From Pocillopora damicornis (lineage: Eukaryota): a DNA stretch of 64,000 bases. A program made the position numbers and the translations under genes. Shown here in pieces: positions 30,601 to 46,000 of the stretch; position 1 is the stretch's first letter, and every line of letters begins with the position of its first letter. The notes beneath the pieces were generated by a model. The model did not search any database and was not told the DNA's origin. It worked only from the letters and a program-made list of their open reading frames with translations. The stretch spans positions 62,001 through 126,000 of the forward strand of contig NW_020846522.1 of NCBI RefSeq assembly GCF_003704095.1, given 5' to 3'.

Positions 30601-31802
30601 AATTTTTCTAAACTTTGTGCATGAAATAAGATCAGGACCCAGCCTGTGCAACCCTCTGTGAAGATAGACATTATTGGTGATTTTTAATCAATAAAAGGAA
30701 CTATAAATTCCTTGTTACCTGGGCTCCCATATAGTCCTGCACTGCAGCTATACTTTCACTGATACCACCTAAACTTGCTTTCATTGATGGGTACTCATCA
30801 TCAGCAAAGATATCTACACTCTTCGATAGTTTCATGCCTTTTTCTTGCAAGGATTGCAGTCCTGTAGCAAAAGCTGTAAAATCTTTTAGTAACATGCTGA
30901 AATGTCTCTCTGCAAGGTTGATTCTCTCTGTTATAACTTTGTTTTCATGGTCCCTGAAATGTAACACCAGTACATAGTTTAACCCTTTAATTCAGAAGTG
31001 AGAGATAACTAACATGAAACTTCTTAGCTTATGATGTCTATACATTATCAAGCAAACAGGTAACTCATCTGGTAGAAGTTTTTTGTCTTGATCTAATACC
31101 AAATTCTTGTAACTAATCTACAAGGAAATGAGTAGCAGCTAGAGGGGAGAATTAACAAACAGATCCTGTGAGTGAAAGGGTTAACCCTTTCACTCTCAGG
31201 AGTGAATGAAAATAAATTTCTCTTCATAATGTCAATACATATTCATGCAAAAAGGTTACAAGAAGAAAGATAGGTATCAATAGGGGATATTAATTGATTT
31301 GACAGAAAACTCTCATTCCTCAAATTCTAATGGGAAAGCATAACAGACTGTGTAAAGAATTGATATTTATATCTAGAGAGTGATCATAAGAGGGCTAACT
31401 TTGTTATGTGTGTTAATGAGGCCAGCTCTCATTGTCTGCTGACAAGCATGGCTCTCTGCCTTTTAGGGTCTGCCTCATACTGAAGGAAGGATGCTATTTC
31501 TCTCTCTCCCCCATCTAGNNNNNNNNNNNNNNNNNNTCCCTTATGAAAAAACAACTGCCTCATTGAATAACCACCAGACGATTCTGATAATTGACTCGCA
31601 AAAAAAAGGGAATTATCCATTAATGGATGAATCAGAACCAAGTTCTGCGACCGTTTTATAACTTTGTAATTAATATGCGTAATCTATTTTTCAAATCTTT
31701 AGATCGTGAAACTATACAAACTATGTTTGCAAACCTTGCTTTCGTCTCGCTTCTCATCTCACTGGGAGTAGAAGCATTCAGATTTGATGAGGACTTCTTC
31801 AT
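27653..31802 (-). CDS. CIBAR1: CBY1-interacting BAR domain protein (FAM92), 294 aa
   Basis: Exons 31735-31802, 30719-30953, 29964-30134, 29799-29804 (6 nt), 29517-29621, 28961-29074, 27653-27838, phase-consistent. Motifs AERHF..L, QDYMGAQVDFIQAKV, ISQAEQNLQ, LEEQMVEFERKKIEDI, QMLFHAKALELYTTAFQ. Confidence 0.92.
27877..28119. mobile_element. Probable MITE with G/C-rich inverted termini
   Basis: caggggtggatgtagg at the left end versus ccctgatttacctctg at the right end (imperfect inverted repeat), inside a CIBAR1 intron. Confidence 0.45.
28690..28906. mobile_element. MITE with ~40-bp imperfect TIRs
   Basis: tagtccactttgcagttacatgcttggttgccaagcctttg ... caaaggcttggcaactaagagcacaactgtaaaatggccc. 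A second copy begins at 63001. Confidence 0.8.
29155..29372. mobile_element. TTAA-flanked piggyBac-like MITE
   Basis: TTAAccccttttactcc ... ggagtgaaaggaTTAA; TTAA at both ends. Confidence 0.8.
29805..29963 (-). other. U12-type (minor spliceosome) GT-AG intron in CIBAR1
   Basis: 5' splice site GTATCCTTG; branch site TTCTTAAC (29815-29822) ending 10 nt before the intron end; no polypyrimidine tract. Confidence 0.85.
30979..31184 (-). mobile_element. TTAA-flanked piggyBac-like MITE
   Basis: TTAAccctttaa ... gagtgaaagggTTAA; reverse-orientation relative of 6746-6950. Confidence 0.85.
31181..31398. mobile_element. Second TTAA-type MITE sharing a TTAA with the previous copy
   Basis: Starts TTAAccctttcactc at the shared TTAA; ends aagagggctaa (degenerate). 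Confidence 0.65.
31519..31536. other. Assembly gap (18 N)
   Basis: Run of N in CIBAR1 intron 1. Confidence 1.
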
Positions 31803-32350
31803 CTTTCACGGGAATTTCACGGATCGTATGTAGATTCTTTGCAGTCAAAGCTTTGATAAGCCACCTTCCTGCAGTGATCTGCTCGGTAAAATTATGGACG
31901 CGATCAAAACATCACCAAGCAACCATGTAACAATTGCTTTCCTCTAAAATTTCTCCGAGGAAGATGTAGCTTTTACTTCTTACGCACTACGATCTATGTA
32001 CAAGAGTATTCAGGCACAAGCTCGCGGTAAATTCATTCAGCTAGATCTCGAGATTCTACAGCTTTAGACTACAACTACGATCGCCACTTCGTCCTGATAC
32101 AACAATTTCCCTCCTTTGTCGGGAGGTGAAGGGCACTTTTTTTCTCCTGTTACACATGCGCACTTCTTGTCGTTTCCCGGTTCGCCATCTTGTGTTTCCA
32201 AGTGAACTAAATGAGCGAATCCAAAGGCGTCTGTATTCATCGCAGCACATGTTTATTCGTTTCTCTGACCTCTGACAAATATACTGGATTGTGCAGCTTA
32301 CTCTGATGTTGTTTTAGCGCTGTTGTTTTCTGTATAATTGGACAGACTGT
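31803..32350. promoter_or_regulatory. Bidirectional promoter region (CIBAR1 / dsRBD gene) with non-coding first exon
   Basis: CpG-retaining island between divergent genes. X-box-like ATCACCAAGCAAC (31911-31923), YY1-like CGCCATCTT (~32183), donor ACT|gtaagt at 32349, acceptor at 33556. Confidence 0.55.
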
Positions 32351-32936: not shown

Positions 32937-33322
32937 ACAAAAGAGTGAATAGTCTTCTGTTTACAAACAATTGATGAGGTGTTGGAAATGTTTATAAATG
33001 ATTCCACCACCTGACTGGATCTTAAAAATTAGATAATAATGATCCAGTCAAGAATATAACCAGTAGCTTGGGCTGCAGTTCTTTTCTGTTTCATTTCATA
33101 TTTGCTGTGCAAACATACAAACAGCTCCATATTGCACTACACCCATGTGGAACTCTTGTTCAGGCCACACTTTTCAAATGTGGCTGAAAGGAAAAGGATG
33201 AGATTGTTCTACAATCTGTAGAAACGTTTTGTAATTTAATTTTATATCTTTTTATTTCAAAATTACCATGACCAGTAATTTGTATCTGTAATTACTCTAC
33301 TTTGTCTAGATATTCTCCAAAT

Positions 33323-33485
33323 ATACACTGAATTGAAATATGGCGTCTAATTTGAATTGTAATTGTTCTGGAGTGATTAGCTTCATCTTCAGGTGGAAAC
33401 ACAAAAGGATCATCACATGTTTGAGAGGCTAGTCAGTCCAGAACGATGGCATTCAAATTACACACCATATTTCAATTCAGTGTAT
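33323..33485. mobile_element. MITE with ~35-bp TIRs (Tc1/mariner-like TA ends)
   Basis: atacactgaattgaaatatggcgtctaatttgaat ... attcaaattacacaccatatttcaattcagtgtat. Confidence 0.75.
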
Positions 33486-33584
33486 TGTCTTTGTTATAAT
33501 AGTTGTTGTCTGTCAAGACCTCTATGGAATTTTAGATTGTTTTTTTTTTCTTGTAGAGACACCCTCTGACATCCTGGAACTTTA

Positions 33585-36500
33585 ATGCGAAGAAGGGGAG
33601 GTCCTCCCCCATGGGGATCACGCAACAGGTTGCATCCTCCCTCACCACCACCACCACCTGAGTATCATGACAGGTTTGATCACCCACCACCTCCTCCCTC
33701 AGGAAGGGCACCACCTAGATTTTGGGATGATCCACATTTATCAAGACCTCCTCCTTGGATAAGAGACAAGTTTGATGGTCCACCCAGACATCCACCATGG
33801 GCAGATGATTACTCTCCTCCACAACACTGCCCGCCACCTGGCTGGTCAGCTCCTCAGGGCCCACGTCCTCCTTCATTTATTGATGATGGTCCATCCAGAA
33901 CCCCCCCATGGAAAAGTGACTCGCCCCCACATCATCCACCCCTTCCTCTATTCAATGATGATGATCCTCAAAGAACCCCACCATGGAAAAGTGACTCTCC
34001 ACCTCATCCTGCTCCACGATCTTCATTTGCTGATGATGACTTTGATATTCCTCCTCCTTATCTTCCAAATAGACCACCTAGAGGAAGAAGGAGAGCTGGA
34101 CGTGGTTGCATTCCTGGTAGAGGATCACTCAGTGGAAGGGGTGAGGCTCCTAAAAGAAGAGCTATGATTACAAGAGGTACAAATCAAGCAAAGGGTGCCA
34201 TGATGAGGGGTGTAAATAATAGAAGAGAGTGTTCTCCAGCCCCAAGGGGTAGGGGTGCAGCCATTACAACTAGGGGAGCTCAAAGTGCAGCAAGGGGTAT
34301 GCCTATCACACGAGGACAGACTAGGGGCAGAACCAATGGATCTAGAGGAGCAGCAAGGGGTACTCTTGTATATAGAGGAGGAATATGTGTCTCCAATATT
34401 AATGGTAATGCAAACAGTAAAGAGGATATATCAGGACTGTCAGATGATACTAGCAAAGGATTGGCCAAATGGCTGAATGCTATCAGGAATGGGAAGTTAG
34501 ATACAGAATGCCAAACCTCAACAGAGGCTCCTGGAAACAACATTAATGCAGCATTGCCACAGAAACAAGATTTTCAATCAACAAATACAGATGCAAAGAC
34601 TGGAAAAGGGAATAATGTGAATAACTATGGTGCAAAGGACAAGCAAAAGACACAGCCTAGTGTTGTCAAAGGTACTTGAACAATAATTAGTGCAAAAACA
34701 CACAGAACACCACAGAATTAATGTGCTGATCATTAAGAAGCTTCAACTTTCCCCCCTCCCTCCACCCCCAGGCAACCCACAGGCATTTTACCTTCGTCTG
34801 TGCCCTGGGGGTGGGAAATTTGAACCTTACCTGGCTGGGGTGGGGAATTTGAAACAGAATTATCAACTCTTTCCAACAGAATACAAGTGTTAGATCTCAT
34901 TGAATATGAAAGAGTTTAAAAGTAGATAGTTCACTTTTGCTAGCAAACAGCTCAGAATGAAAGGTGTACAAAGTCAAGGTGAAAAAGCTTGTATCCTGTA
35001 GAAAGTCATGATCACTGTTTTGCCTTTTCCATGGAAAATTGAAGCAGCATTTGAACTCAATTTTTTTCTCTTGGGGGCATGATAACACTGAAGCTTGCTA
35101 GTCAGCTGAATGAAGGTGCTCTAACCTCCTCTTTTTTTTAAAGCACAATCTACGAGGAAGGCATGACATTACTTGGAATTATGTTTTTCGGTGAAATACT
35201 TCAGTCATAAAATATTAATTATGAGTTGGTTTGTGCAATGTGACTAGCAGAGTTCTCTTAAAACGCTATCAACCTGCTATAAATGGTTTCTGTTGATTTT
35301 TCAACTGAATATCTTATGGCAATACACTTGACGTTTGGGAAGGTATGTGAGCTTAGTGCTAGTAAGATTAATTTCATGTATAGTTTATTGCACAAGAGCA
35401 CAATAACACTACCTCTGAGGGCAGATAGTGATGAGAATGAATACAGCTGTTTTGAAAAGGGTTGACAGGGTTAAAGGTAAAAGTGCCCATGACAACCCCT
35501 AAAGGTATTGTTGGCAGTTTCCAGGTCACAGTTCCTTGACCTCAGAATTTCAGGGAAATCTGAGAAAATGTCTCTGAAAGGACCAGGCATTGGGGGTTTG
35601 ATGAATTTATTTGTTTATTTCACTCATTGAAACTCACCTATTATCAGATTATTATTACCTACCGAGATTGCAGCTTGCAATTTCGTCCTTTTTTCTGACA
35701 ACATTTCTCAAAACAGCCGTATATCTTTTCCACCAGGATAAGTGGTCAGGTTTTAGGTAAAATCCTGTCCAGTTATCCCTTTTTTGTTAACCTTGTCTTG
35801 GTACTTTTTATTTACCTGTTGCTGGGTTTGTCTTGTTGTTGCAGTACCTGGGAATCCTGACTTCATTTCATTCAAGAACAGTTTACAAGAATGTTGCCAG
35901 AAGCAGCAGTTACCAGTCCCTTCCTACACAACTTGGAAAAATAGCTTTGGTTACTCAGGAAAAGTTGAGGTTGCAAACAGTACTTTCAAAAGTACTGGTG
36001 TTCAAGGAGAGCGTAAGGAGGCCGAGCAAGGGGCTGCATATTCTGCTTTAATGGCTCTGGGCCTAATTGATGCCTCTGTCAAGTTTGATGTTAAAACTGC
36101 TGCAGGTATACATGTAGTTTCTTTTTTAAGTTGAGTTTTGGCTATAATTACAGTTATATGTGTCTTAACTCAGAAGGCCTCAGCCTGTGAACACCTTTGA
36201 CAGTTCCATGAGGATTGTAGTAATTAACAATTTTCCTGTGAGTGTGCGTTGGATGTGAGATGGTAAATAGGCATCAAGGTGCATATTGCTGAGTTTGCTG
36301 TAACCAATCTTGCACCTGAAAAGCATTAATGGAGTAATTGTTTGTTTGTGTTTTTTTAATTTTATTAGTACATTCTTGGATGTTTGAATATTTTCGGCCT
36401 CCAACACATAGCAATGCATTTCCTTATAGGGTGACTCAGAATNNNNNNNNNNNNNNNNNNNNNNNNNNNNNNNNNNNNNNNNNNNNNNNNNNNNNNNNNN

Positions 36501-39500
36501 NNNNNNNNNNNNNNNNNNNNNNNNNNNNNNNNNNNNNNNNNNAACAGAATGCTGCACAAGTTGTTTTACACTTTCTGAACCAGTGTCCTCCTCCGGCACC
36601 CAGTTATCAGGATTATATGGAACAATGCAAGAAGCTCACCTCAGGACAGGATCAACCGTCAGAATCCATTGCTACAGAGGCATCTACCACTGCAGTTACT
36701 ACTACAAGTAAGAATTCCTCGATTTTAAATTACGAAACAACAGTATGACTTGGTTTTAAACTCTTTAGTAAAGCAATGATTCTCACAGGTGATCTGTAAT
36801 TTCAACAATTGCAGAAAGAAATCCTGAAAAATTCCAGTATTTGATGTGATTCAAACCCATGCTTCCCCCCAATTACCTGTTGTGTGGTAGAATCAACTGA
36901 GCTACCAAGCCTCACGTTGGGAGTGAGGCAAATTTTAGAGGGTTCTTTTTTCCCGTGAAGGAATCTGGTTTAAACTTTTTTATTTTCATAAAAGCAATTC
37001 GACCCACAGCTTAATTTGTTACTACATAACTTTGATATCACATCCTTCTATGTAATTGACGACAAGCTGTCAATGAACAACAGTCACGAGAAATGTTTAC
37101 TCCATGGTTGCAGTACATCTGAAAAAGCTGCAGGTATTGATGCTATTTGATAACTTGCCACCATGCATGCTCAGGTCTCCTCGTTCGTTGAAAATTCCCA
37201 TTATTTGGAGCCAATAAATGTTAAAAGTAGGAGCAGTCGAGAGTAGGAAAATACCATATGGGCAGGAGTAAACTAAATGTCAAAAAGGATGAAGAAGACT
37301 ATCACGGATTTCGACTAGCCATGTTGGAAAATTTAAGTCGAATCTATACAAACCATACCGAAGCTCTTCTGTGGTATGCACACAAGAGACTCACGTAGCC
37401 AACGCACCTGTCATGTGTTGCCTAGGTGTCCTCATGTGTCAAACACATGCAAAGGACGTAACAGAAAATAGTCACTTGCGACACGTCTCTAGTCTTGCTG
37501 TGTTTTTCTTTTTTTTTTTTCTTTTGCAAATGCAAAATTTTCCTGGGGTTAAATTAACTTGTTGATGGTATTTCTCTATTCATGCTACGAAAAGCACTGC
37601 ATGTCTCCATACTCCACTTGCGCTGTATTTTTAAGTCCTTTTCCTCTTTTCCCGTTGCCGCCTTTACCTTGAGTTATAATTATGATGAAATCTTGTCCCA
37701 GCGACGTGAGAAATTGGGACTAAGCCATATTGATCTTCGACTGGTAACCAAAATTGTTTTCTAACCTTTTCCCAGTAGTTTGTAAATGTGACTGTTTCAT
37801 CCCTGTCATATGTCCCGCCTCACGTCTCTGTTGCGCGTCTCCTCAGTGTGCTCTACACGTGGTGTTGTCTCTGTCACGTCTGTCACGTCTGTCACGTGTC
37901 TATGCATCATGGCCTCTTTCCGTTCAGCCGGAGGAAAACATTTTGCGTCCACTCCCCATTGCCCAAGGCTATAGCGTAGTGTTATGGGCCAGGTACTTTG
38001 TCTTCATGGTATCCCATTCCATATATACATGGATACCGGCAAACTGTGAAAGTTACCTGTCGGAATGCTTCGGGGTAACCTGCATCAGACTTCTCATTAC
38101 AAGGGGAGTGGCATAAATCTTGCTATAACCCCGCACAATGGGCCACCTGGTGCAAGTGACGACATTTATTCTCACCTTCAGGTCTTCGCTGTTATGTCAC
38201 TGCGAACGAGTGGAAACGTATTGCGCGTGCCTTGATAATGAGACAAATGCAATGCTCTCCTTCGCTTGCATGAGGAAATTTGATCGAGTGGAGACGTAGG
38301 GCGTGTGTCTAGACAACGAGACAAAAGCGATGCTTTCCTTCGCTTTTATGAGGAGATTTGATTGAGTGGAGACGTAGGGCGCGTGTCTAGACAATTAGGC
38401 AGATGCAATGCTCTCCATCGCTTGCAAGAGAAGATTTGATTGAGTGGAAAGGTAGGGCGCGTATCTTGATAATTAAACAAATGCAATGCTCTCCTTGCTC
38501 GCAGGAGGCAGGTGGACTTGCTGTTCATTCGCTTCACCCCGCTGAGTTCAGCGGTATATCTTCGCACGTGACTTGCAACCAGTGGGCGTGTATTGTCAAG
38601 AGTGACATTTTAGCAATTTTTTCGATGACTGGTTAATCAAGTTTGTATCAAAACGATTTGAGCTCGCCTTAATCTGATCCCCCCTCACCTTAAATACCTC
38701 CTAGACGTGAAAGCAATGCCTCAACAGTAATTAAATGCCGGTGTTGAGTGCCTTTCGTTTGTATGTGAATTGACAAATGTTGTGTCGAAGTCAGGAGTTA
38801 ATCCCAGACAACAGTAGTAACACATTTTTTCAAAAAGCATGAAGTGCTGGAAATAGAAAATGCTGCTATCTTGAAATGTCTAAGAAAAGAAATTGAACCG
38901 AGGTAATACGGAAGGTTTGAAAGATGAAATTGAGACTTATAGTTCATTTATCATCCCTGAAGTCGTTTTGTTGTGTTCAAAGTTTTTCTTACCTGGTGTG
39001 GCGTATCTTCTTAATCCTTCCAACCTTGTTGATTTACTTGTAATTCCAAACGGTATTTCAGAATACGGAGATTTGCGACATAAACCGAGGACCATAGCCA
39101 ATTTTTTGCACAGCCTAGATTTAGATTCTTATCTTTGTCAGACAATTGTAAAGTTGCAAGTAAACTTGACCCCCAGACAGGCTTCTTCAGCTTATCGCGT
39201 GGCCATAATACTTATTGTCTAAAACCTTGTCTGACCTAAGCAGGGTTCGCGACGATTTATCTTATTTGAGACGGAAGCGTTAAACACCCACAAATCAAAG
39301 TTACTATCAAGCAAACTTTGTAGCAAGATACTCCAGTTAAATTTTACCTTGTTTGAGATTTATCCGTGGGTACAGAGTTCATAATTGTATTGCCAACGTA
39401 TTCAGTTGTTTTAAGAAGTGTTTTAACAAAGGAAGCTTTCATTTGTCCGATCCATGGCTACTTCAATGACACGCTTCCGACTGCGAGGTGTCGGGTTACC

Positions 39501-40459: not shown

Positions 40460-41325
40460 TTAACACTAGTTGACCGATTTTAACGAGTGGTTTAGACGCC
40501 TTACAACAAGCATGCGCAGTACATGAAGTCATGGCAAGATCTGCTTGGCTTTGATCTCAAGTTTAATCTCCAGTGAAAAACAACCATCCTCAACTGACAA
40601 CCCGATCACCTCGGAAATCTCAGCCATCGGAGCTGACATATCTGATCGAAATTCGTGAGCCAGTGGGGACAAACCACTTTGGTTCATCCAAATAAAAAAA
40701 ATCGGCACTGAGAACTGAATGTAGCTTTACGTGTTAATCCTCCGTACACATAGCAAATGGACTGCGAAACAAGAAACAGAGCCACAAATTAAACCATTTG
40801 AAGGCGTGTTATTCGTTGAGTTTTGTCCTTCGCGTTTTTTTTTCTTTTTCAACTCAAATCACCACTACCCAACTCTCCGTGTTATTCTTGATTCTGCTCT
40901 ATTCCACTCATAAGTCCAAGTATAAAGTCTTGCATTTTCACCACAGTAGTTTTCCTCTTAACATTTCTTTGCCTTTTCGATTTTCAGTAAACGCAGCAGT
41001 AGTGCAACCGATCTCCACATCCACAGCGCCCAACCCTTTCGTACCTACAGACCAGAACAATTCCGACCCTACAGCCTCAGAGACTCTTAATGCAGACGTA
41101 GCCAAACCAACCATTACTTTCACGTCGCACAAAAACAAACTGCAAGAATACTGCCAGAAGTCCAAGATAGAACTACCTGTTTACTCCTGTCAAAGGGAAA
41201 ATGGCGTCTTTACTTGTACGGTTCATGTCGCTGGACGATCGTTTTCCAGTAACGGCTGTAACACTAAGAAAGGCTCAGAGCAGACTGCGGCCAACATAGC
41301 GCTGAAAGCTTTGGGACTTATTTAA
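33585..41325 (+). CDS. Double-stranded RNA-binding protein (2-3 dsRBDs, HYL1/DRB-like) with Pro-rich and RG-rich N-terminus
   Basis: Coding exons 33585-34671, 35845-36105, [gap]-36707, 40988-41325. dsRBDs: SFKNSLQECCQKQQLPVPSY...RKEAEQGAAYSALMALG and SHKNKLQEYCQKSKIELPVY...TKKGSEQTAANIALKALG. A probable third dsRBD tail, QNAAQVVLHFL, emerges from the gap. Confidence 0.8.
36443..36542. other. Assembly gap (100 N) hiding exons of the dsRBD gene
   Basis: Run of N; coding sequence resumes mid-domain at 36543. Confidence 1.
36765..36962 (-). mobile_element. Degenerate tRNA-related SINE
   Basis: Minus strand has A-box-like GGTAGCTCAGTTG and B-box-like GGTTTGAATC, followed by gaatttttcagg...caattg. 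I could not build a complete cloverleaf. Confidence 0.6.
38208..38505. repeat. 78-bp minisatellite, ~3.8 diverged copies
   Basis: GAGTGGA anchors at 38208, 38286, 38364 and 38442 (period 78). Confidence 0.9.
40395..40459. repeat. (TTA)n microsatellite
   Basis: Imperfect then perfect TTA run; source of the spurious poly-Ile ORF. Confidence 0.9.
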
Positions 41326-41521
41326 CACGGTTTGTACGCAGTTTTGACACATTTCTATTGCGGGCGTAGTCGAGGTTTGGGCACAGGAATGCACAAGGTA
41401 TGAAAAATAATTTAAGACCATGATGGAAATTTATTTTATATCCATTACCTTGGTGTCAATGGGACGCAAGAGACGTTGGTCAGGTTTTTACCTCCATGGA
41501 GTGTTCGGCTAAGAAAAGTCT

Positions 41522-41680
41522 ATGAAATGACAAGCGCTTTGTTCGGGCGACATGTTGGACAGAGCGGGTGCCCCCTGCAGGAGTCTTCCAAGGACTTTCG
41601 GCACAGCACCCGGAGCGATGTCGGGTTCGCTCGGGTTTACGGTCGGTAACCAACATGGTGCCCGAACGAGATGTTATCAT
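41522..41680 (+). ncRNA. Candidate structured RNA element in presumptive 3' UTR
   Basis: 18-bp outer stem 41541-41558/41650-41667 enclosing three hairpins, folded by eye (see findings). Confidence 0.5.
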
Positions 41681-43028
41681 CGCATTAAGTATTAGTTTGT
41701 CGTTATTTGCAACGTCGAACCTTAACTAATGACTCAGTTTCTTGTAGAATTTTATTTGATTAGACAGAAGCACTCGTGATTGAACGTTTGCGAGACTATG
41801 ATCGGACTCATTAGCATTTTAATGAGAAACTCTCATTAAACGAACTGGATTAAAAACTAGGCTGCCACAGTTACATCTGTCGTGTTGTACTATGTGACGG
41901 AATACATAAGGAGAAACTGATATACAACATTATTTTACTGGTTATAGTTTTTTTTTATTCACTTTGTCTTTGAAATTATAACACCTGGAACGGTCAACTG
42001 TAAGGTACCAGAAAGATTCTTCTTGTCCTACAACATGTTGTTTTAGCCGTCGCGCTAAAAAATTTAAGGGTTTTACAACATCGTCGACAGATATCTTGAC
42101 TTGCCTAAAATATTCTCTTATCGTTCGTTTCGTGAAACTAATGTCAGAATCGGGTGTTTAAAGGCTTTTAAATTGTCTCAAAGTTAAATGTATGAAAAGG
42201 AAAATCAAATGAAGTAGTTTTCTAGAGGAATCGGCGAAGCTAGACCTCCTTTTTGGTCGAGAGTTGTAACCATACTAGTTGTTGTAAATAAATGCGTTAA
42301 GTGTTTGAAAGTGTAGCGGTTGACCTCGCGAGTGACTTCGGATCTGGGAGCTTTGTGCGTGCATTCTGGCGCCTATTCGCGCGTGTCGCGTGTCGCGCGT
42401 GGCACGCGGAGCACTAGAAACGAGTCGATTACTACGAATCCTTACTGTTGCCCAGAAACAATATGATCTCGAACAAAATTAACTCAGATTTGTTTCTCTT
42501 TGTGCCATGCTCGTGACAAGTGTGTAGAAGGAAATTTTCCTTTCTTTCACAATCAAGGGTAAATTGTATTCATCGTCTTTTATCGTTTCTTAATATAATT
42601 TTCTTTTCTAGTCTTTAACTTTCGAGTAAAAATTGGTTTTTCACCTTTATTGAGTACATGCTGTAGAAAGTGCTTGATCCTAACATAAAACGAATGCGTG
42701 ACAACTACAATTGGAAATAAGTTTTCGTTCGCGTTAAGCTTATATTTTACCATGCCAATCTTCGCGTCAATTTATATCGTGAAACTTTTTTTTTATTATA
42801 AATGACTCTGACTGGGTCAAAATAAAAATATTTATTCACCTACTGTTTCACAAAGAAAACCGAATGTCGTCAACCGAGGAGAAGTGACGCACTTTTGAAA
42901 CAATGAGGAAAAAACGCACCATTTTCAAATGCATTTTGGTTTTTTTGTTTGACTGAGTTGCATTGTATGCCAAAAATACAAACTTCGTGACGACAAGGTA
43001 TCACGGCGTGCATTGCCCACGCTGTTTT

Positions 43029-43067: not shown

Positions 43068-46000
43068 TTGTGAACTTCGTTTTTCCTTCTTACTGAAATA
43101 GTCCAGTTCCATCTCTCCTACATATTGCAAGAGTTATTTCAAGAATAAGAACGAAACATTGAATTGGACTCAGATCAATTCTTACAGAATAGCCCTTTTC
43201 ACAGAAATCATTTCGACACTTTGTTCACTTGCTCCGACTGTCAGGTGAACCGTTTACACTGTCAAAACTCGACGAGTTAACTTTTCATCCGTCACTTTCT
43301 GCCATTAAAATCTCGCTACATGTTTATTCATTTGTTACCATTCTCAGGAACACACTGGTTGAATCGAGTCAACACTGACATATGTAAACTTCCATCCGGC
43401 GGATTTTTCTCCGTTTGTCGCAAAGGATGAAGATAATTCTCCTTTTTCGACTCCTCTTATGATTTTATTTACTTTCCTTTGTTACCTTTCTAAATCCTCC
43501 CTTTAATCTCCGAAATTTCTTTACGAATTTCTATTTTCCTATCGTTTGTTTTTATTAATGGTAATCTTTTTCTAGCCTTGACTTTTTGAGCGCTTAGGAT
43601 CACATGCAACAGGGGTCAAATTGAAAGAATTTTGAAAAATAGTTGTGTATATATCATTACCATTTCTCTCGAAAATTCATGAAAAAAAAAACAGACAATA
43701 AATAAAAACACTCAGTCCATAGCTTTATTGTATGAATTGCTCTGAACATAAACAACGAAAAAACTTCATTTAAAAATTTACATTCTTAAACAAACTTTTT
43801 TGTAACGAGGCGCAACCTTTGTTCTCGGCCAAACAGTTTGATGTTTTTCTTTTAATTGAACCTACAGATTGCAGCAGTTGTTTGCTATTTTTGTACCAAT
43901 CTTGTTAACTTGTAGACTCGTGGACATTTTCAATCAGTTCGTGCCATTGTTCCGCCCACGGAAAAGGTGGAAACTTTAACAGTTTCCACTTAACCATACT
44001 TTAGGCCATCATCTGGAGCTAAGGACAAAATTATCGAGTTTGTCTAATTACATATTTATGATGTCGCTTTCAAAGGTGAAAGAGTCAAAATTAAAAACTA
44101 ATTATTTCAAAACATGTCTCAAGGAGATTTCAATTTCACAGAAAGAATTTAAAAGAATTGAAGAAAATATGTAGCCGTAAAATCTTCGCAACAGGAGGCG
44201 AAGCAATAACTTTTCATAACCTAACGATGGTGCGCGCCCGTGAGACCAGACGCGTGGGGCGTTTGCCCATGCTCTTTGGTCATGTTTGGCACACGTCTTG
44301 CATGCTATCAGGATCACAAGACCAAGTGCGCTGCGTGCAAAGAGAGACGACAAAAAAACATTCTTTTTTCGAGACTTGACATAAAGTTTGATTCTTGTGG
44401 GCGACCAAGTTGCTTCCCTAAGGTGGTACAGATACTTATTTGCGTCTGTATTTAAACGAGTCAAGGGTATTTGCCTAAAATGGTTTTAGATGAGCTTGAT
44501 ACCTTAGGAGGACATTTTTCGTGTGATTTTTAGAGACAACCTTTGAAGATCTACGTGATTCCTTTGTCCCTTTCATGCCAAATGTGTGTTAGTGGGGAGG
44601 GGAGGGGATGTTCAGCACACTTTTCGCCACCCCACCAGCCCACTCAACCAGTAAAGTAAATGGAAGCGTTATTTTCAGTTCGTCTTTCCGCGTGACTTTA
44701 GTACTTTGAAATGCCAGGTACGTTCAGTGTATTCAAGTGTGTTCATTGTGTCATGCGAAGTCTTGTATACGAGGAGGTTATAATTAGCACAGCTTGTCTC
44801 CTGCACTTCTCGAGGTCGACCCGCTCAGTTTTTTTTTTTCCCTCAAAAAAACCGAAAAATAGGGCGCAGTTCAGTCGCAACTCTCCAAGGAAACATTTTT
44901 TTCAACACAGAAAAGATACCAAAGTTGAAACAACAACCACAACATCGCGCATGTTGTTTTGTAGTTCGCCTTTATAGGGCATTTTCCTTTCAGGTAGATC
45001 TCGTTTATCATTTGTGAAACATGAAACTCTGTTAGAATTTTACTAAGAATGTCGTTGAAATTGATGTTACTCGTTTTATTTCCTCTGGATTTCAATGCAA
45101 AAATGTGAATGACTTGGTATGTTTTCATTAAGACAGACGATGTGTGATAGTCTCTTTTTTGATTTAACTTATGTAGTTTTTTCGTTGGAAGACGAAGTCC
45201 AGTTTAGTTTCGTTTCAATTGTTGATATCACAAGCATTTATACCACGGGTGTATATGTCATGTGTTTCGTGAGGAATTCGTTTTGAGGGGAGGAACCCTC
45301 GTCAATTCTTCTTGAAATGCTCAGGATATGTCGCTTTATGTTCAACTATCGGGAATTCCACGAAACTTTCCGAACAATGATTCTTACGGCAATGGCAATG
45401 CTTCGTCATTCTCATGAAGGAAGACTCCATTCCCTTTTTTTTCCCACCGCCTCCGCGCCGGATTAAAGAGCGTAAAGTGCTGCCGATGAAAATTAGGTTT
45501 TGTATAATTAGTTGGAAGCTACGCGTGGGTGACAGATCGATAGTTTCGACAAGAAACAATCGATCTCTCGCCTAGCATACTACCTTGGAAACAGAAGAGC
45601 TTGGAGTAACCAAGTGAATTTACTGCATTCTGAGAATGAATGAATAAACTAAACCGACTTGGGCAACAGAAAAAAAAAATCGTTTCCAGTTATGTAAGTT
45701 GCTAGTGAGTTGTTGCTAAAATAGTGAGCGCTCACCTATACATGTTTTGTGTGGTAGCTGCATAAAACAATAATGAAAACATGTTTACAGACAAGCAAAA
45801 TCTGAACAAAGTTTAAAATGTCAGTATCCGAAAAGTAGCCCGAAGTTAGTGTTTATCGAGTAAAGTCGGTGACATTCGGCCTTCCTTTGAAAGTGTTCTC
45901 TTAAGTACTCGCTATTTTCGTTTGAACTGTTGCGTGTCACCTCAGAACAAACCGGTTTTGTTTCTTCCCCCGTAGGTAAACAGTGCACTTAATTTATTCA

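Follow-up and report, generated by a model that had tools for sequence, protein, structure and literature searches.

Drosha substrates of the DGCR8 type resemble pri-miRNAs: single-stranded flanks border an unbranched stem of about 35 bp. Inverted repeats within 3' untranslated regions (UTRs) form duplexes that serve as binding sites for Staufen or as substrates of ADAR editing, and 16–20 bp of duplex suffice for a double-stranded-RNA-binding domain (dsRBD). The HYL1-like proteins of cnidarians have a central place in the debate over a common origin of the plant and animal miRNA pathways; the gene class is treated in passages of PMC3840309. Cleavage of mRNA stem-loops by Drosha is described, in the part of PMC3814725 consulted, for the 5' end of the DGCR8 mRNA and for the Ngn2 3' UTR. 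In a RIP-seq pull-down of Nematostella Hyl1La, pre-miRNAs were enriched and mRNAs were not significantly enriched, according to the portion of PMC9098223 available. The literature passages covered mention no UTR element for Nematostella Hyl1La, and a literature search by listings returned no paper on HYL1 autoregulation or coral UTR hairpins. The element considered here (positions 41522–41680) lies in a 64,000-nucleotide stretch of Pocillopora damicornis DNA, referred to as the window, to which all coordinates apply unless stated otherwise. It had been put forward in a preliminary description as a multi-branch RNA structure in the 3' UTR of a dsRNA-binding protein gene, bound by the encoded protein or cut by Drosha or Dicer. 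The element is real, undescribed in the literature searched, old, single-copy, modestly constrained and dispensable, and is best read as a repeat-derived 3'-UTR stem-loop.

The host gene encodes a product of 700 aa (P0001), Pro/RG-rich at its N-terminus, in which three dsRBDs follow; Pfam called the first and third, and internal repeats were also used for the domain calls. Its upstream coding exons (33585..36707, + strand, edges read by eye) comprise the Pro/RG-rich exon (33585–34671, +), the first dsRBD exon (35845–36105, +) and the second dsRBD exon (+), which is partly N and ends near 36707. The last exon (40988..42300, +) carries the third dsRBD (about 41125–41322), the stop codon TAA (41323–41325) and a 3' UTR of about 1 kb. 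The best PDB matches of the host protein are plant DRB4 and HYL1, its 90% cluster includes proteins named from Pocillopora, and its best anemone match (P0095) has the same layout, with 39% identity across residues 365–700. Judged from these protein comparisons, the gene is assigned to the cnidarian HYL1-like dsRBD genes and is likely, but not certainly, the orthologue of Hyl1La. A second HYL1-like paralogue with multiple dsRBDs, of which one long exon encodes two to three, was seen at G000:C3270:245242-245886 (L044). Three further features of the surrounding sequence were recorded: an exon of FAM92 (BAR domain) at 30704–30991 on the minus strand, the gene of which appears to be arranged head-to-head with the dsRBD gene (about 31800–32300); a tandem array in the last intron (38240–38500, by eye), in which a unit of about 78 nt is imperfectly repeated three to four times; and a segment downstream of the gene (43719–43911), about 70% conserved with L005–L008 and L010, which is probably the end of a neighbouring gene.

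Placement of the element in the mRNA was read from a single stranded polyA run (X21, fragmented library), 6% of which was read. The last exon was covered on the + strand, with a depth of 31–34× over the element and of about 0 after 42296. The polyadenylation signal that had been noted (AATAAA, 42287..42292, +) is directly followed by a depth near 0, and the element lies, as claimed, inside the polyadenylated 3' UTR of an mRNA that extends beyond it and does not end before 41520. Read depth was at its maximum over the element, with no break; neither a splice joint nor an antisense read was found among the X21 reads there, and no pile of read ends occurred inside the stem in the polyA reads of this one run. 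At about 30× in X21, the changes listed for 41522–41680 (listing threshold 3 reads) included no A>G, so that the A-to-G signature of an ADAR-edited duplex was not seen. Over seven runs no variant was found within the element, which is weak evidence, since about 1.4 would be expected from the 10 variant sites in the remaining 1154 nt of the exon, over the whole of which only some of the runs were aligned.

The terminal stem was reproduced as first described: 17 of the 18 positions in 41541–41558 are paired with 41650–41667, a G-U and an A·G being among the 18. Its 5' arm (41541..41560, +) contains a 16-nt core common to other corals (41545–41560) and a YY1-like motif with an ACAT core; the 3' arm (41648..41667, +) contains the conserved core 41648–41663 and a YY1-like motif on the minus strand. 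The enclosed region comprises H1 (41565..41612, +), with an outer helix (41565–41571/41606–41612) and an inner hairpin (41580–41587/41591–41598), the 6-bp hairpin H2 (41613..41632, +), the same columns of which can form it in other corals, and H3 (41637..41649, +), which is weak and not conserved. A G-U-rich basal extension (41527..41540, +) can pair with 41668–41680. CGGGT occurs three times (41565, 41622 and 41632) and ACCCG once (41608), as had been pointed out.

For the 159-nt element a minimum free energy (MFE) of −69.4 kcal/mol was calculated (z −4.36; equalled by 0 of 200 shuffles), and none of 158 sampled 159-nt windows within the 64 kb reached z ≤ −4, the coordinates for the fold test having been picked around the stem itself. 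The 64-kb window contains seven inverted repeats that reach 16 or more Watson–Crick pairs out of 18 within 300 nt, and such a stem is therefore not rare in this genome. Folding of the whole UTR upheld the proposed multi-branch fold in part: the core stem (pair probability about 1.0, G-U pair 0.46), the inner H1 hairpin (0.56–1.0) and H2 (0.69–1.0) are predicted firmly, whereas the outer H1 helix (0.39–0.45), which competes with an extension of H2, H3 (0.25–0.36) and the ATGA/TCAT basal extension (0.01–0.03) are weak, only 41539–41540 of the extension being favoured (0.71–0.84); the stability of the branched fold as a whole is thus partial. The + strand, which had been said to be favoured by G-U pairs, does fold better, but the bias is weak: good folding, at z −3.27, was calculated for the minus strand as well, and homologues from other corals gave z −1.3 to −3.2 with no strand preference. 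No Rfam family reached its gathering score in the window, and none was found over the element at E ≤ 10, in keeping with the statement that no known family is matched; covariance models from Rfam gave nothing on two homologues at E ≤ 5. Readings of the element as SECIS, C/D box, hammerhead, tRNA-derived or 5S-like RNA were rejected on the absence of the core motifs (by eye) and of an Rfam signal.

A high-copy MITE, named beforehand as one outcome that would overturn a regulatory reading, was not found: DNA matching and a paired-arm pattern (3 mismatches) both returned a single locus in G000, a count to be read with the qualification that this assembly may be incomplete and that old copies may escape detection. 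As a control, an intronic inverted repeat of the host gene (33320–33488) was recovered as a multi-copy family at five G000 loci, showing the search to be able to detect such families. The version of the element from other corals had no match in G000, and the covariance model R1, run on the loci collected from 35 sources, recovered the orthologues without any paralogue at E < 0.5, so that very old copies may still exist elsewhere in G000. The outer-arm pattern matched G000 four times, against one match for the control, and the arm motif alone 25 times, against none. This motif sits in two related interspersed repeat families of G000, likeness to the element being confined to about 20 nt at E ≥ 0.16; a family with the same terminal repeats was not found in G000. 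The two families (L014, L016, L017, L023, L031 and L035; L019, L020 and L024–L028) both have a YY1-like core and a common downstream motif. Searches of prokaryote genomes returned no related locus, and viral contigs contained no match to the arms. As in a MITE, terminal inverted repeats (17 of 18 pairs, 91 nt between them) bound a short non-coding element; many dispersed copies were not seen, and no target-site duplication was recognisable by eye. Given the failed copy-number test and the missing duplication, the element, although it resembles a MITE relic, is not classed as one.

The orthologous last exon was found at ten loci, nine of which form one group. The last exon of L005 is the same as P0005; the C-terminal part of P0005 in turn matches P0006, which clusters with an Orbicella protein. 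The element is present at the same UTR position in six of the ten loci (six of the nine in the group), as three distinct sequences, and in four of four distinct carrier sequences the core stem is predicted at this position with a probability above 0.9. At L005, L009 and L010, a fourth type within the group, the 5' arm is kept and 116 nt, comprising the interior and the 3' arm, are missing. These three loci form a well-supported clade, the place of which inside the group is not settled by the tree; as both arms occur in the window and in other members of the group, the absence is most simply explained by loss. The last exon of this lineage is intact, and the element is dispensable. At the distant locus L004, which is saturated (21 of 28 four-fold sites differ), no homologue of the element was found in the UTR, even though an alignment with L006 could be made over its first 110 nt (0 of 200 shuffles); the element is absent there, but divergence is too high for a clean empty site. 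A young Tourist-like insertion of 156 nt, with perfect 22-nt arms and TAA/TTA flanks, was observed at L005 (2640–2795) and also at L009 and L010; it follows the deleted element at a distance of about 180 nt and has no match in G000. Further inverted-repeat insertions were found beyond, in or behind these UTRs at L003 and L011.

Comparison of the orthologous UTRs had been proposed as a check, and its outcome was divided: the arms are conserved above background, while covariation is not significant and the element is lost in one lineage and absent in the distant coral. The arms of the window are identical to those of each of three homologues at 26 of 32 positions, against 44–47 of 83–84 (about 54%) in the interior (Fisher p 0.006–0.017). 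Of the four-fold sites in the last exon, 14 of 26 are identical between the window and the group (arms versus four-fold sites p 0.044). Among the three homologues themselves 1 of 32 arm columns varies, compared with 96 of 444 other columns in the first 480 nt of the UTR (p 0.011), and the change in that single column breaks a pair. Another UTR block (41383–41412) is equally well kept (23 of 30 positions identical to three of four homologues). This region (41383–41420, containing AAG/GTATG) is kept even in the hairpin-less L004; its AAG/GTATG has the look of a 5' splice site, one that at about 73 nt past the stop codon would invite NMD-type feedback, and no splice joint at the putative donor near 41398 was found in the reads.

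The covariation set consisted of four sequences, effectively two lineages. No compensatory double change was found in the core stem, and covariation in the outer stem was not above shuffles. When the fold of the window was placed on a sequence-only alignment, H1 and H2 kept 79–100% of cells paired, and over the whole fold six pairs had changed on both sides (0 of 500 shuffles, a control that ignores relatedness). Conditioned on the changed sites, pairing of changed interior pairs was retained in 8/12, 9/14 and 10/15 cases (p 0.07–0.10; 0.2–0.4 with a higher transition bias). Imposed on the homologues, the three-way fold of the window lay 3.4 to 4.4 kcal/mol above their own MFE, and the MFE folds of the homologues differ from one another in the interior. 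Transitions in the core, counted by eye in alignment A3, were evenly divided (2 G-U versus 2 A-C). These alignments support conservation of the arms; for the branched structure they are no more than suggestive.

Our preferred reading, which is tentative, is that of an old MITE-like relic in the 3' UTR of a HYL1-like gene, the terminal 16–20 bp stem of which may have been kept by modest selection as a dsRNA handle. An old small DNA transposon, of a family since lost, would have inserted into the UTR; the terminal stem of 16–20 bp would then have been retained under modest selection while remaining dispensable; and, as the simplest mechanism at the RNA level, dsRNA-binding proteins, of which the encoded protein is one candidate, might bind the duplex, if it folds in vivo as predicted, and shift decay or translation of the mRNA. 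A MITE-like origin is suggested by a size and anatomy like those of other UTR insertions with terminal inverted repeats (for example the 156-nt insertion at L005), by restriction to certain lineages and by an arm motif that is a common repeat motif; it is unproven, since no family and no target-site duplication were found and repeat likeness covers only about 20 nt. Modest selection is suggested by the better-kept arms, and the mRNA-binding step is weakened by the lineage loss, the lack of covariation and the non-enrichment of mRNAs with Hyl1La. The arms might instead owe their better preservation to small-sample chance in an old inverted-repeat insertion that decays without function. We doubt this account, though it deserves serious consideration: the interior is as diverged as four-fold sites, the element was deleted where the last exon stays intact, comparable inverted repeats occur seven times in 64 kb and lineage-specific ones lie in or behind these UTRs, the core transitions are even, and a 30-nt UTR block is conserved to the same degree. 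It sits poorly with arm conservation in two partly independent comparisons (p 0.006–0.044 between groups; about 0.01 within), in arms that had been picked by pairing in the window and not by conservation. CpG-rich arms, moreover, are expected to decay faster, not slower. Selection could also act at the DNA level, on two inverted, predicted YY1-type binding sites of which the RNA stem would be a by-product, a reading that we regard as unlikely but worth taking into account. Both arms fit the YY1 consensus CGCCATNTT (given in the part of PMC1904287 consulted) with 0–1 mismatch, the sole variable arm column coincides with the N of the motif, precisely where the change breaks the RNA pair, folding shows no strand preference and the motif is enriched in G000; yet conservation spans 16 nt on both arms and so exceeds the 9-nt motif, the 5' arm of the window has an ACAT core, and X21 contains no antisense reads.

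The remaining explanations assign the RNA a more specific role. Because the host is a HYL1-like dsRBD gene, feedback by the encoded protein or by Drosha, proposed by analogy with the hairpins of DGCR8/Pasha mRNA, is plausible; true HYL1-like feedback through the element is nevertheless improbable. In its fullest form, a coral HYL1-like Dicer partner would autoregulate through a transposon-born three-way-junction RNA in its 3' UTR, as the HYL1 counterpart of DGCR8 feedback, the duplex rather than its sequence being required, and the lineage that deleted the stem would have made up for it with a newly inserted MITE hairpin of 22 bp, about 180 nt further downstream (L005); this, too, we hold to be improbable. 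DGCR8-like cutting of the hairpin by Drosha/Pasha, or by Dicer with the HYL1-like protein, which would destabilise the mRNA itself or free a small RNA, is more doubtful still. The likely miRNA-pathway function of the encoded dsRBD protein, the precedents of Drosha cutting other mRNA stem-loops (DGCR8 and the Ngn2 3' UTR, in the part of PMC3814725 consulted), an isolated stem which with its basal extension amounts to about 27 pairs, and a left read end at 41525 (+), just 5' of the element, that is common to eight molecules at a depth of 37 in X21, all speak for it. However, the firm stem of about 20 bp stands beneath a branched interior and not a simple loop, 41525 falls outside the stem, read depth peaks unbroken over the element, and Hyl1La binds pre-miRNA, not pri-miRNA, in the portion of PMC9098223 seen. 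Nor did the coral miRNA lists searched contain an arm-derived sequence: no arm k-mer occurred among 31 Stylophora miRNAs and five supplements (PMC3962355) or in the part of the PMC13343488 supplement covered, where the miR-100 control gave nine matches; no arm sequence was present in one supplement of PMC7935066, which may lack sequences, in text passages, as distinct from the supplements, of PMC12022774 and of bioRxiv 10.64898/2026.05.09.724056 (A. digitifera), or in a full-text literature search; and about half of the PMC9098223 supplements were covered, so that a miRNA of this locus could still be listed in the rest. Least probable of all, and by our estimate very improbable, is that a shorter but stable 3'-UTR RNA starts at the structure, its 5' end being produced by a block to a 5'–3' exonuclease or by an internal start at 41525. 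The eight shared ends precede the predicted basal stem by 2 nt and coincide with a rise in depth; against this, they come from one run of a fragmented library, read to 6%, may be duplicates or mark a fragmentation hot spot, and are given little weight because similar piles of six occur at 41901 and 42105, and the basal extension is itself improbable in the full UTR.

If feedback through the element were true, it would add to the HYL1-like proteins a homeostatic loop not found in the literature searched, together with a recruited small transposon. The present evidence describes a modestly constrained, dispensable UTR hairpin, which makes a cheap and well-defined reporter target.

Set beside the known systems, the element shares with DGCR8/Pasha mRNA hairpins the location of a stem-loop in the mRNA of a probable miRNA-pathway dsRBD protein. 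The DGCR8 hairpins occupy the 5' end of their transcript, and their cutting has been demonstrated (PMC3814725, in the part consulted), whereas the coral element is situated in the 3' UTR and its cleavage is hypothetical; it is also branched, shorter-stemmed and not universally kept, and its host is HYL1-like, not Pasha. In place of the long, unbranched stem of a Drosha substrate it offers about 20 firm pairs, a branched interior and a basal extension with pair probabilities of 0.01–0.03. With Nematostella Hyl1La the host protein has in common three dsRBDs, to which the best PDB matches (plant DRB4 and HYL1) and the equal layout of P0095 may be added; orthology is likely rather than proven, as Hyl1La has 11 exons and, judged from its morpholino, begins with MAA where P0095 begins with MGN (by eye), and a second paralogue with several dsRBDs exists. 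Like the duplexes recognised by Staufen or ADAR, the element is an intramolecular 3'-UTR duplex formed from repeat-like arms, but it measures only about 20 bp and shows no listed A>G change at about 30×. The likeness to MITE-derived 3'-UTR hairpins extends to a length of about 120–150 nt, terminal inverted repeats of about 16–20 nt, short internal palindromes, a patchy occurrence among related corals and the presence of younger examples in or behind orthologous UTRs. From these hairpins the element differs in being single-copy in G000, with neither family nor target-site duplication, and in having arms that are conserved across two distant coral groups.
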